The position numbers and the translations under genes were made by a program. The notes beneath the pieces were generated by a model. That model did no database searches and was not told where the DNA came from. It worked only from the letters and a program-made list of their open reading frames with translations. From NCBI GenBank assembly GCA_029856365.1, contig JAHQWW010000010.1, positions 1-64,000 of the forward strand: a stretch of 64,000 bases of DNA, read 5' to 3'. Positions 24,782-27,806 of the stretch are shown here, one piece after another. Positions within the stretch are counted from its first letter, which is position 1; each line of letters begins with the position of its first letter. This DNA is from Candidatus Hodarchaeota archaeon. GTDB lineage: Archaea > Asgardarchaeota > Heimdallarchaeia > Hodarchaeales > Hodarchaeaceae.

Positions 24782-25336
24782 ATGAATTACGCCGATGATA
24801 AGGCAAAGTATCACCTTAAAATCATTGTTTGTGGGGCTGGAGCTGTAGGAAAAACTTCAATAGTACGACGTTACGTGGAAGATAAATTTGAATTCAACTA
24901 CTTACTTACAGTGGGTTTGGATCCTACGAATCGTCGAATTGAGGTGGATGGAACCCTTGTTAATCTAGTAATCTTTGATGTAGCAGGCCAAAAACGTTTC
25001 CAGACACTTCGAGATATCTTTTTCAGGAAAGCCAATGGTGCTCTTTTAGTATTCGATCTCACACGATCAGAAACTCTTGATGAGTTGTACGAATGGAAAG
25101 AGCAAATTGATGATCGGCTTGGGAAAGATCGTATCCCTATAATTTTGGTTGGTAACAAATCTGACCTTGAGGACATAGTACGAATTGATTATGGTTATCT
25201 CGAAGACCAAGTTATTCCAGATTTTACACCCATCAAATATCTTGAAACTTCAGCCTATCATGATGAAAATATACGGGAAACATTTTTCTATTTAACCAAA
25301 GAAATTCTAGAACGGGAAGGTATTATTTCATCATAG
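24782..25336 (+). CDS. Rab-like small GTPase
   Basis: G1 GAGAVGKT, G2 LTVG, G3 DVAGQKRF, G4 NKSD, G5 ETSA; no C-terminal Cys. Confidence 0.93.
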   Translation: MNYADDKAKYHLKIIVCGAGAVGKTSIVRRYVEDKFEFNYLLTVGLDPTNRRIEVDGTLVNLVIFDVAGQKRFQTLRDIFFRKANGALLVFDLTRSETLDELYEWKEQIDDRLGKDRIPIILVGNKSDLEDIVRIDYGYLEDQVIPDFTPIKYLETSAYHDENIRETFFYLTKEILEREGIISS

Positions 25337-25719: not shown

Positions 25720-25938
25720 TCATATTAATTGAGCAAAAAAATCTTGAAAAATAGGTTTATCAATCCTAAGTGCATTTCCTTCGCAATTTAATTCACATGC
25801 TCTACATTTCAGACAAAGAATGGGTTCTGCTAGTTCCGCCTTGTTATTATCAGTATCAAATACAAAACACCCCCTTGGACACACTTGTACACAGAACTGA
25901 CAACCAATACAACGTTTTGCATTAAAATGTATCACCAA
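25720..25938 (-). CDS. 2[4Fe-4S] ferredoxin (HgcB-like position, non-canonical)
   Basis: CIGCQFCVQVCP and CLKCRACELNC. Confidence 0.85.
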   Translation of the reverse strand: MVIHFNAKRCIGCQFCVQVCPRGCFVFDTDNNKAELAEPILCLKCRACELNCEGNALRIDKPIFQDFFAQLI

Positions 25939-25943
25939 ATCTG

Positions 25944-26924
25944 TTATCCTCCAATAATGAATGGTGCGATAATCAATCCAAAAATAATTACCACAGCTGC
26001 TCCAGCAAGGAGTATATAATCCTTTATGATAAAATCAGTTCCCCAAAGCGGTGTAAAGCCATCAAAATCTGTCCCGATAATTGAACCATATAGTAATAGG
26101 GTGCCAAACCCTATGATAAAATCCAAAGTCGAACTTGTAAAGAATAACATTGTACATAATGGAACCAGAAGGATAGAAAGGATCAAACCTTTGAATAATC
26201 CCGAATTGAAGGGAACCACTGGATAAAGAATACCTATTAGACAACCAAAAAACCATATATAGAATAAAAGGAATAGTACATTTGCTTGAAGCCACTTAGC
26301 CCATGGTTGTAGTACAAAACCAAGGGGTTGAGCTAAAATTGAAATTCCTAATACTAGAGGTAGTAAGATTAAGGAAATGAAGACGTTATGCGAGATACTA
26401 TTCTCTAAACGTTTTTTAAGATTAAATTCCACCTGGGACATCTTTGTTGATTTTGATTGATTATTCTGCAAGTACTCGCTTAAATCTTCAATATACACTG
26501 GACCGAATTTCGCTTCCCATTCAGCCTTTTTTAAAACGATATGATCCACTCCAACAGCAGAAAGTTGCGGAAGTATCAACTGACGATGATTTATCGCTTC
26601 TGTTAGATCAGTATCTGCTATTTGAGCAAGAATCTTCTCTGCAGTAAAATTACCTCCAGCAGCGGAACACCAAACATTCACACCCTCGGTATCAACTACC
26701 AACAACCAAGCGCTAATGCTCTGTTTCTCTAAAGAAGACACGATCCTTTTATATGTAACGAAATAATTTGAAGTTACCAAAACGGAAGATTCTTCAGAAG
26801 GCCTGGGATTACCAATGGGATAAAGTCCGGGTTTAACGTTCAAATTGAAACCTGGAAAGGCGAGTCCTGCAATAGCGATTGAAAATACTTCTTTGAATAT
26901 ATCCAGCATAGTCATTGCAATCAC
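25944..26924 (-). CDS. HgcA-like membrane corrinoid protein (CdhD/CFeSP-like N-domain plus TM helices), non-canonical cap helix
   Basis: PGLYPIGNP, VLVTSNY, LLVVDTEGVNVWCSAAGG, LILPQLSAVG and FGPVY motifs; C-terminal TM bundle. Confidence 0.85.
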   Translation of the reverse strand: MIAMTMLDIFKEVFSIAIAGLAFPGFNLNVKPGLYPIGNPRPSEESSVLVTSNYFVTYKRIVSSLEKQSISAWLLVVDTEGVNVWCSAAGGNFTAEKILAQIADTDLTEAINHRQLILPQLSAVGVDHIVLKKAEWEAKFGPVYIEDLSEYLQNNQSKSTKMSQVEFNLKKRLENSISHNVFISLILLPLVLGISILAQPLGFVLQPWAKWLQANVLFLLFYIWFFGCLIGILYPVVPFNSGLFKGLILSILLVPLCTMLFFTSSTLDFIIGFGTLLLYGSIIGTDFDGFTPLWGTDFIIKDYILLAGAAVVIIFGLIIAPFIIGG

Positions 26925-26962
26925 ACATCTAGGTTTGATGTTGTTCTATTTTTAGTTTACTC

Positions 26963-27613
26963 TCACTTAACCTTCTTTTTGATAACAAATAAAGTAAGAT
27001 GTCCACTTAGGTAAGGCTTTTGATCGAGGATTGAACCATAAGTTGACAGAAGAGTTGCTATATCATGAGTAGGATGTTTTGGAGTTTTAGCGATTATTGC
27101 AGCTATTATGTAAGCGGGGAATCTCAGTAAATTAATAACTAGATGTTTGATTTTGCTTGCAGGTAATGATTCTGTTATAAGTATAAGAACACCATTTGTT
27201 TTTAAGCAAAAATGAAATTCATCAAGGGCTCTTTTAACCTCCTGATAGCTTAATTCCGAAAAAACCAGAGAACAGACAATAACATCGAATAATTCGAGTT
27301 TTAGTGGTAAAGCAGTAATTGAAGATCTAATCAGAGGGGGGCGAGATCTTCTTCCGAAAAATCTTTTTCGTGCTTGTTGAAGCATACTTTCAGATATATC
27401 AATACCAATAGGTTTTACCCAAGAAGCATCTACTATTTCTACAAAACGACCGGTTCCACAACCTGCGTCAAGAAGAAACTGATTCTCATGCAAGTATTTC
27501 TTTTTAATATATGTGTAGATCCTACCAAGACGACCTAAAGTTAGAAAGTTGATTAACCACTCATATTTACTTGGTGCCTTCTTTTCAGCTAATGTCATCA
27601 AAATTGTTGCCAT
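26963..27613 (-). CDS. Class I SAM methyltransferase, resembling corrinoid protein-associated methyltransferases (CpaM-like)
   Basis: LDAGCGTG, GIDISESML, CSLVFSEL; N-terminal APSKY...LTLGRL; located directly upstream of the HgcA-like gene. Confidence 0.8.
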   Translation of the reverse strand: MATILMTLAEKKAPSKYEWLINFLTLGRLGRIYTYIKKKYLHENQFLLDAGCGTGRFVEIVDASWVKPIGIDISESMLQQARKRFFGRRSRPPLIRSSITALPLKLELFDVIVCSLVFSELSYQEVKRALDEFHFCLKTNGVLILITESLPASKIKHLVINLLRFPAYIIAAIIAKTPKHPTHDIATLLSTYGSILDQKPYLSGHLTLFVIKKKVK

Positions 27614-27806
27614 TATATTGGTCAGAGAATGAAAAAATTCGTTATTAAATCAAGTTTTTGTCAATAATAAAGTATCTAATATTTTTAAATCTTTAGAAGA
27701 TTATCTATAATCGTTGCCCCATGACTTAATCCATCATATTAAGCACATGGGAAGGTGGATTCTTCATTTACTTTCTATCTAATAGTAAGAAGTAGTGTAA
27801 CTTATT

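Follow-up and report, generated by a model that had tools for sequence, protein, structure and literature searches.

The 64,000-nucleotide stretch analysed here (the window: positions 1 to 64,000 of contig JAHQWW010000010.1, from a Candidatus Hodarchaeota archaeon) carries three adjacent genes, for a CpaM-like class I methyltransferase of the S-adenosylmethionine (SAM) dependent type, an HgcA-like corrinoid membrane protein, and an HgcB-like ferredoxin. This trio is a split version of the CpaM / HgcAB-like module, and we consider it probable that it forms a membrane-anchored, cobamide-dependent methyl relay, whose acceptor is most likely something other than Hg(II). The analysis establishes the homology of the module, its architecture and fold, the obligatory linkage and fusion of its genes, the purifying selection that acts on them, and their phylogenetic position. 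The relay itself would proceed in three steps: the 72-residue ferredoxin would give low-potential electrons that bring the cobamide on the HgcA-like protein to the Co(I) state; the CpaM-like methyltransferase would move the methyl group of SAM to Co(I), yielding methyl-Co(III) with the thiolate of Cys83 as lower ligand; and the methyl group would then pass to an acceptor at the cytoplasmic face of a five-helix membrane domain.

One line of support for this reading is the association of the methyltransferase with the corrinoid protein. The methyltransferase aligns over its full length (residues 3-215 of 216) with the NCBIfam model CpaM (NF043040, “corrinoid protein-associated methyltransferase”), at 135.9 bits for a cut-off of 180; elsewhere in the window's genome the same model finds 12 other methyltransferases, at 60.6 bits or less, and among the matches listed only the SAM-binding core is aligned. 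Its Pfam matches are Methyltransf_11/25. It retains the SAM motif GCGTG and the N-terminal motif P..Y(D/E)..I..LTLG, both conserved family-wide together with D..ML..A, FD and SEL. We then used it as a phmmer query against all open reading frames of 109 loci. At 55 of the 59 non-canonical HgcA-like genes, drawn from Asgard archaea and many bacterial phyla, a full-length CpaM-like methyltransferase is either fused to the gene (15) or encoded directly upstream (40), as it is in the window; the domain occurs at one of the 51 genes with a canonical motif, and this one gene lies outside the canonical clade. The four exceptions are an insertion of about 2.6 kb between the two genes in genome G068, an overlap in the calling of open reading frames, a fused copy too diverged for phmmer that yet matches CpaM at 114 bits, and one NVWCAAAKG protein. 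Natural methyltransferase-HgcA fusions of about 540 residues are also present in the protein database. The survey argues strongly, on comparative grounds, for a physical partnership of methyltransferase and corrinoid protein, and the contrast of 55/59 with 1/51 supports a relay from SAM to cobalt to acceptor. For the ferredoxin, coupling is indicated by the 5-nucleotide spacer that separates its gene from the HgcA-like gene, by fusion in bacterial relatives, and by an apparent fusion within the window's own clade (protein P0034, below). The functional tie to both neighbours that the initial annotation had proposed is thus supported by linkage and fusions. The pairing is not the novelty it was taken for: NCBIfam already holds both CpaM and an HgcAB-like fusion protein (NF043039). 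A literature search on CpaM, or corrinoid protein-associated methyltransferase, returned nothing relevant.

Scoring the proteins against the hidden Markov models of HgcA, HgcB and their paralogues, a check suggested at the outset, gives CpaM and HgcAB_like as the best full-length matches, all under their cut-offs. The HgcA-like protein reaches 205 bits with NF043039, short of the curated cut-off of 285, and 169.7 bits with HgcA_corrinoid (NF040863), below the 275 that a canonical HgcA has to attain; a true bacterial HgcAB-like/CpaM pair scores 447 and 283 bits with the HgcAB-like and CpaM models. The Pfam match is to the CdhD-type corrinoid domain, and no second domain of CdhD/CdhE type was found in the window's genome, which is 84% complete. 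NCBI records annotate the proteins of the window's clade as “hypothetical”.

An AlphaFold2 model of this protein, computed from an alignment of 60 sequences (predicted local distance difference test 92, predicted template modelling score 0.82), resolves into an alpha/beta domain of the corrinoid-binding type, a cap helix (residues 81-86) and five transmembrane helices (166-195, 199-230, 239-258, 263-287 and 293-322). Its first Foldseek match is 9a0b_A (HgcAB), followed by corrinoid domains of the corrinoid iron-sulfur protein (CFeSP), with root-mean-square deviations of 1.5-1.9 Å over 131 columns; entry 9a0b is the published 2020 computed model of HgcAB, and the copy of the PDB that was searched holds no experimental structure of HgcA. 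In the phmmer alignment, the cysteine of NVWC stands opposite the threonine of SVLT in the CFeSP 2H9A, and N80, V81, W82 and the cap-helix Cys83 are invariant in 60 diverse family members. The three elements of the canonical HgcA fold, namely the corrinoid-binding domain, the cap-helix cysteine and the five transmembrane helices, are thus all present in the predicted structure, which bears out the HgcA architecture, with its putative cobalt-ligand cysteine, read earlier from the sequence.

The high-stringency list of the Hg-MATE database, N(V/I)WC(A/S)(A/G/S)GK, makes a lysine obligatory at position 8 (PMC10087281). The motif of the window, NVWCSAAGG, found exactly where it had been reported, has a glycine there and fails the list. 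Replacement of GK by GG is the usual mark of the HgcAB-like paralogues. The signatures of the cap helix set the groups clearly apart: NVWC[AS][AS]GKGT in canonical HgcA; NVWCA[AG][GK][GA]G.. in bacterial HgcAB-like fusions, some of which have NVWCSAAGG(H/Y), the same as the window (P0055, P0059, L088); NVWCAAGGG[FYH] in methyltransferase-fused forms; NVWCS[AS][AV]G[GRK][HN] in the window's clade; and INVWCGSRGG[HS] in a second unfused Asgard clade, with family code f31. The position varies inside the window's clade, 5 of 33 close homologues having a lysine at position 8 or 9 (AAGK or AGRH-type). The loop between the fourth and fifth transmembrane helices reads DFDGFTPxWG in the window's protein versus NFTGxSTYTS in canonical HgcA, and a loop that is so specific to a lineage would be consistent with differing acceptors.

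The ferredoxin also departs from its canonical counterpart. It matches the C-terminal part of HgcAB_like (52 bits), HgcB (NF040864; 50.5 bits, cut-off 99), and a Pfam family with two [4Fe-4S] clusters. Its cluster motifs are CIGCQFCVQVCP and CLKCRACELNC, and its tail, EGNALRIDKPIFQDFFAQLI, is free of cysteines, which confirms the CLKCRAC motif and the lack of a Cys-rich tail noted in the initial annotation. Canonical HgcB has both CxxCxxCxxxC(P) motifs, an ...SGVGC... that follows the second cluster, and a C-terminus rich in cysteines; the window's ferredoxin has the two motifs, and neither the cysteine of GVGC nor the C-terminal cysteines. Other members of the family do have such features: the ferredoxins that accompany the Asgard methyltransferase-fused paralogues carry GCGC(I/L)WN and Cys-rich tails, and CSCPTC together with terminal cysteines is found in many bacterial HgcAB-like fusions. 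All of these are lacking from the ferredoxins of the window's and f31 clades, which end in a conserved tail of the type IEKPIF..FF.QLI. The absent cysteines align with C73, C94 and C95 of HgcB, which are reported as crucial for methylation (PMC11588087), and their absence argues against mercury as the substrate.

The phylogenetic check proposed earlier was run with IQ-TREE on 77 rows and 305 columns (model LG+C20+F+G4), with CdhE as outgroup. The tree contains no experimentally tested sequence: Pyrococcus furiosus and other tested organisms are absent among the at least 80 loci, mostly from metagenome-assembled genomes. Canonical HgcA forms a clade with support 100/100, and the window's protein is not inside it. 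Its own clade (100/99) is sister to the unfused f31 clade, with a joint support of 99/98, and the bacterial forms, methyltransferase-fused and A-B-fused, make up a single clade (93/88) that does not include it. The branching order among the four main lineages is weakly supported (36/8 and 54/21). The candidate assignment to canonical HgcA was rejected on three counts: the failed motif list, the 169.7 bits for a threshold of 275, and the position outside the 100/100 clade. The description of the protein as a non-canonical relative of HgcA is thus borne out by motif, scores and tree alike. Judged from these sequences, the protein stands outside both canonical HgcA and the bacterial fusion clade, and it belongs to an Asgard-specific lineage with three separate genes. 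What is new is this fully split, Asgard-specific variant of architecture and phylogeny; the module itself is already curated, and is not a new system.

Could the trio still be a genuine, divergent mercury methylase, made of an HgcA, an HgcB and an accessory methyltransferase? The HgcA architecture, the cap-helix cysteine and NVWC are kept, the HgcA_corrinoid model is matched at 170 bits, and a few members of the clade have a lysine or arginine near the canonical lysine position (NVWCSAAGK, NVWCSSAGR). Moreover, the negative results for fused forms come from whole cells, and are no proof of an inactive enzyme (PMC4646819). Mercury methylation is however absent in all tested isolates with HgcAB-like paralogues (PMC4646819, PMC10087281). 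With the protein failing the Hg-MATE motifs (PMC10087281) and falling outside the canonical clade, and with its ferredoxin lacking the cysteines that match HgcB C73/C94/C95, we regard a mercury methylase as very unlikely. Of the methylation module with a non-mercury acceptor put forward in the initial annotation, the second half gains from the motifs and the missing cysteines, which make mercury unlikely; the first turns out to be a module that had already been catalogued.

The methyl relay has a chemical precedent: purified canonical HgcAB was found in 2024 to use SAM as its methyl source, with methyl-cob(III)alamin, ligated by a cysteine thiolate, as the intermediate (PMC11588087). The window's genome encodes at least 8 proteins with a B12-binding domain, which indicates that cobamides are in use. 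Several points weigh on the other side. The CpaM / HgcAB-like family as a whole is biochemically uncharacterised. In canonical HgcAB, SAM is used without a separate methyltransferase (PMC11588087), so that CpaM may do something other than loading the cobalt. With NCBIfam scores below the cut-offs, the equivalence with the bacterial family would hold by inference, and the case against mercury is drawn from motifs and from tested organisms with fused forms. Finally, a search for CobS alone, in the 84%-complete genome, found none, so that the supply of cobamide is unproven.

One alternative gives CpaM and the ferredoxin a role in re-activation only, as in methionine synthase, the methyl group used in turnover coming from a different donor. 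SAM-dependent reductive methylation of inactive Co(II) is an established repair route of methionine synthase, with SAM and flavodoxin, which counts in favour of this alternative, and the fact that the corrinoid protein of canonical HgcAB reacts with SAM itself leaves the role of CpaM open. On the other hand, no MT1 gene of the methyltetrahydrofolate or methanol/methylamine type is linked to the module in any lineage examined, nor was another CdhD/CdhE-type domain found in the 84%-complete genome. In addition, CpaM is fused 1:1 with the corrinoid protein in many lineages, as would be expected of a catalytic partner in fixed stoichiometry more than of a repair factor needed now and then. We thus hold re-activation alone to be improbable, though less so than a mercury methylase.

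The Co(I) centre might also act on halomethanes or alkyl halides, by dehalogenation or methyl capture, with no methyl donation by SAM. A 2026 preprint describes dechlorination of CCl4 by heterologously expressed canonical HgcAB (10.64898/2026.04.26.720869); it is unreviewed, and deals with the canonical enzyme only. Halide chemistry leaves unexplained the near-universal linkage or fusion with a SAM methyltransferase, and the neighbourhood contains no halide-specific genes; the probability of this reading is, in our estimate, very small. The methyl relay with an acceptor other than mercury remains the reading that we prefer.

The close homologues of the HgcA-like protein, about 33 clusters with 56-100% identity and lengths of 318-343 residues, are all from Asgard archaea; the next sequences have at most 37% identity. 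Labels on the nearest proteins in the database read Hodarchaeales, Hodarchaeota, Heimdallarchaeota or Promethearchaeota. Among 399 Asgard genomes, the orthologues are confined to the window's own GTDB genus, in the Hodarchaeales, where 9 of 21 other genomes have an intact copy and one more has a broken copy. The cassette is accessory: it occupies one fixed chromosomal site in about half of the genomes of a single genus. In this broken copy (G065, L019:775-1959), the HgcA-like orthologue is cut after the corrinoid domain, around residue 150, and its frame continues as a heimdallarchaeosortase domain (NF045528, 212 bits). The genes for the ferredoxin and for the major facilitator superfamily (MFS) protein are missing there, and either decay of the copy or a deletion with fusion would account for this.

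The A and B parts, which HgcAB-like proteins join in one polypeptide, are separate in the window and in the 9 other genomes of the genus. That the window's clade is generally unfused is judged from a search for homologues of 179-571 residues and from ten genomic loci. A single sequence departs from this: in P0034, which has 68% identity to the window's protein and is encoded on an 845-bp ENA contig, a single frame runs through membrane domain and ferredoxin (...PFLIGVQKYMVIHFN...), which is apparently either a natural A-B fusion within an otherwise split clade or a sequencing error. From such comparisons, the state of fusion seems labile. Paralogues of the “fused HgcAB” kind are familiar from work on mercury methylation (Podar 2015, PMC4646819; Capo 2022, PMC10087281; Lin 2023, PMC10083202). 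Lin et al. 2023 took gene fusion as the hallmark of the paralogue clade and put Asgard sequences among the fused forms, mentioning fused HgcAB in Thor- and Lokiarchaeota (PMC10083202); the unfused Asgard lineages qualify this picture. A literature search combining hgcA and Asgard found no dedicated paper. We also observed that most of the same-genus genomes G057-G076 encode, with or without the split trio, an additional methyltransferase-HgcA-like fusion paralogue of 550-570 residues, 33-40% identical to the window's protein (for example G074:C56:177936-178814 and G067:C1:4419080-4419964). This paralogue was not found in the window's own genome, again at 84% completeness.

The coordinates of the cassette are given in Table 1. 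As first described, the three genes are co-oriented and tightly spaced, with gaps of 47 nucleotides between the methyltransferase and HgcA-like genes and of 5 nucleotides before the ferredoxin gene, and the last two are unfused: a TAA stop and a change of frame lie between them. The HgcA-like protein read from its ATG matches database protein P0001; the open reading frame finder extends it upstream to a GTG at 26924, for a total of 326 residues, a start that is probably unused. The sequence GGAGG is found 8-12 nucleotides 5' of the ferredoxin start, within the end of the HgcA-like gene. The G+C content of the window is about 35%.

Table 1. Features of the three-gene cassette in the window.
Feature	Position	Strand	Remarks
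CpaM-like class I SAM methyltransferase gene	26963..27613	-	216 aa
HgcA-like corrinoid membrane protein gene	25944..26915	-	ATG start, 323 aa
Cap-helix motif NVWCSAAGG	26652..26678	-	direct sequence read
HgcB-like 2x[4Fe-4S] ferredoxin gene	25720..25938	-	TTG start, 72 aa
Upstream motif TTGACAAAAACTTGAT	27649..27664	-	16 nt; candidate promoter or operator; distance to the methyltransferase start about 35-50 nt

Since the complete trio recurs in 9 other genomes of the genus, and since the ratio of non-synonymous to synonymous divergence (dN/dS) is 0.05-0.38 for all three genes where dS is unsaturated, comparison of the sequences indicates that these are real genes, and not chance open reading frames. 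The same observations bear on the possibility that the cassette is a remnant in decay and without function. About half of the genus lacks it, the broken G065 copy is fused to a sortase gene, and two genomes have insertions between the methyltransferase and HgcA-like genes. However, an intact trio under purifying selection in the window and in eight other genomes, the conservation of all family-invariant residues, the high confidence of the AlphaFold2 model and the retention of the upstream motif leave this idea barely credible. In the comparison with the closest relative (L039, genome G074), a single pairwise estimate gives a dS of 0.28 for the methyltransferase, 0.43 for the HgcA-like gene and 1.21 for the ferredoxin, and of 0.85 and 1.24 for the neighbouring Ras-like GTPase and EamA genes. 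The low values of the first two genes possibly reflect a recent exchange of part of the cassette, or else codon constraint.

The order of genes in the genus is dNMP kinase, 617-residue membrane protein, Ras-like GTPase, trio, MFS, EamA, GNAT and zinc-ribbon protein. As this whole neighbourhood is syntenic, co-orientation alone says little, and the suggestion that the GNAT, EamA and MFS genes handle substrate or product did not hold up: within the genus, either set of genes occurs without the other. Four genomes (G057, G069, G070 and G062) keep EamA, with GNAT in the first, and the flank formed by the Ras-like GTPase and the 617-residue protein, and have neither MFS nor trio; G073 has GNAT, EamA and MFS without the trio; in G072 and G068 it is the trio that is there and MFS that is missing. 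In the f31 sister clade, there is no MFS, EamA or GNAT near the trio. Instead, the f31 loci (L179-L186) have three genes after the trio, co-directional in most loci, for an HdrA-like/MvhD fusion (1150-1280 residues), an HdrC-like Fe-S protein (172 residues) and an HdrB-like CCG protein (294 residues); another HdrB/C-like pair and a gene of the radical SAM type lie nearby. These Hdr-like proteins could be a source of low-potential electrons, or their presence may be mere synteny. On the other side of the cassette in the window, a Ras/Rab-like small GTPase gene (24782-25336, plus strand; Pfam Ras, 142 bits) is convergent to it, about 380 nucleotides past the end of the ferredoxin gene, and occupies the same place throughout the genus, in genomes with and without the cassette.

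Upstream of the methyltransferase, 6 of 8 orthologous regions retain TTGACAAAAACTTGAT, with 0-4 differences, in the midst of diverged intergenic DNA, and this conservation suggests that the trio may have its own promoter. A second element, resembling (T/C)TTGA(T/C), lies about 25 nucleotides downstream of it.

Mercury methylation looks like a side reaction in the HgcA family. Essentially every non-canonical lineage is accompanied by the methyltransferase, and canonical HgcA is not, a distribution that fits SAM as the methyl donor of HgcAB (PMC11588087); dependence on SAM may, on these sequences, be ancestral. One could go further and conjecture that the arrangement of the unfused Asgard clade (the Hodarchaeales genus and a second Asgard family), with methyltransferase, corrinoid membrane protein and ferredoxin as three separate components, is the one from which the whole HgcA superfamily started. 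We judge this unlikely; if it were true, canonical HgcAB would have arisen by loss of the methyltransferase and gain of Hg-binding cysteines, and the native acceptor of the Asgard clade would point to the original, non-mercury job of the family. A bearing on the origin of mercury methylation is possible; the deep branching order is weakly supported. What the cassette adds is incremental, the module being already catalogued. Its split and compact form is still convenient, as each part can be expressed separately for testing whether CpaM loads cobalt from SAM, and its presence or absence at one fixed site in a single genus offers natural plus/minus comparisons.

We now compare the trio with the systems that it resembles. 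With the large subunit of CFeSP (AcsC/CdhE) of the Wood-Ljungdahl pathway, it shares a homologous corrinoid-binding domain, at 32% identity. Only this C-terminal domain can be aligned: the window's protein has no N-terminal [4Fe-4S] cluster, no TIM barrel and no CdhD partner, while it does have a membrane domain, and a cysteine replaces the threonine below the cobalt. The resemblance with canonical HgcA and HgcB (NF040863/NF040864) is closer: separate A and B genes in the same order with tight spacing, an 8Fe ferredoxin as partner, a corrinoid domain with the NVWC cap helix, five transmembrane helices and, likely, SAM as methyl source (PMC11588087). The window differs by a cap helix without lysine, followed by FTAEK as in CFeSP and not by GKGTFGT, by a dedicated methyltransferase, and by a ferredoxin without the Hg-linked cysteines.

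The methyltransferase-HgcA-like fusions of Chloroflexota and Asgard archaea (about 540-580 residues, with a separate ferredoxin) have the same three functional parts, their N-terminal domain aligns over its full length with the window's methyltransferase, and they co-occur with the trio in several genomes of the genus. They differ in that methyltransferase and corrinoid protein form one chain, and the Asgard ones are placed nearer to canonical HgcA in the tree, with weak support. The nearest catalogued system is that of CpaM with the HgcAB-like fusion protein, which gives the best full-length matches, has the methyltransferase directly upstream of the corrinoid protein, a cap-helix cysteine followed by GG for GK, and the same corrinoid, membrane and 2x[4Fe-4S] parts. 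In the window, however, the scores stay under the cut-offs (205 versus 285, and 136 versus 180 bits), A and B are encoded by two genes, each in its own frame, the ferredoxin is without the CSCPTC / Cys-rich tail of many bacterial fusions, and the tree puts the corrinoid protein in an Asgard clade of its own (99/98), apart from the bacterial one (93/88).

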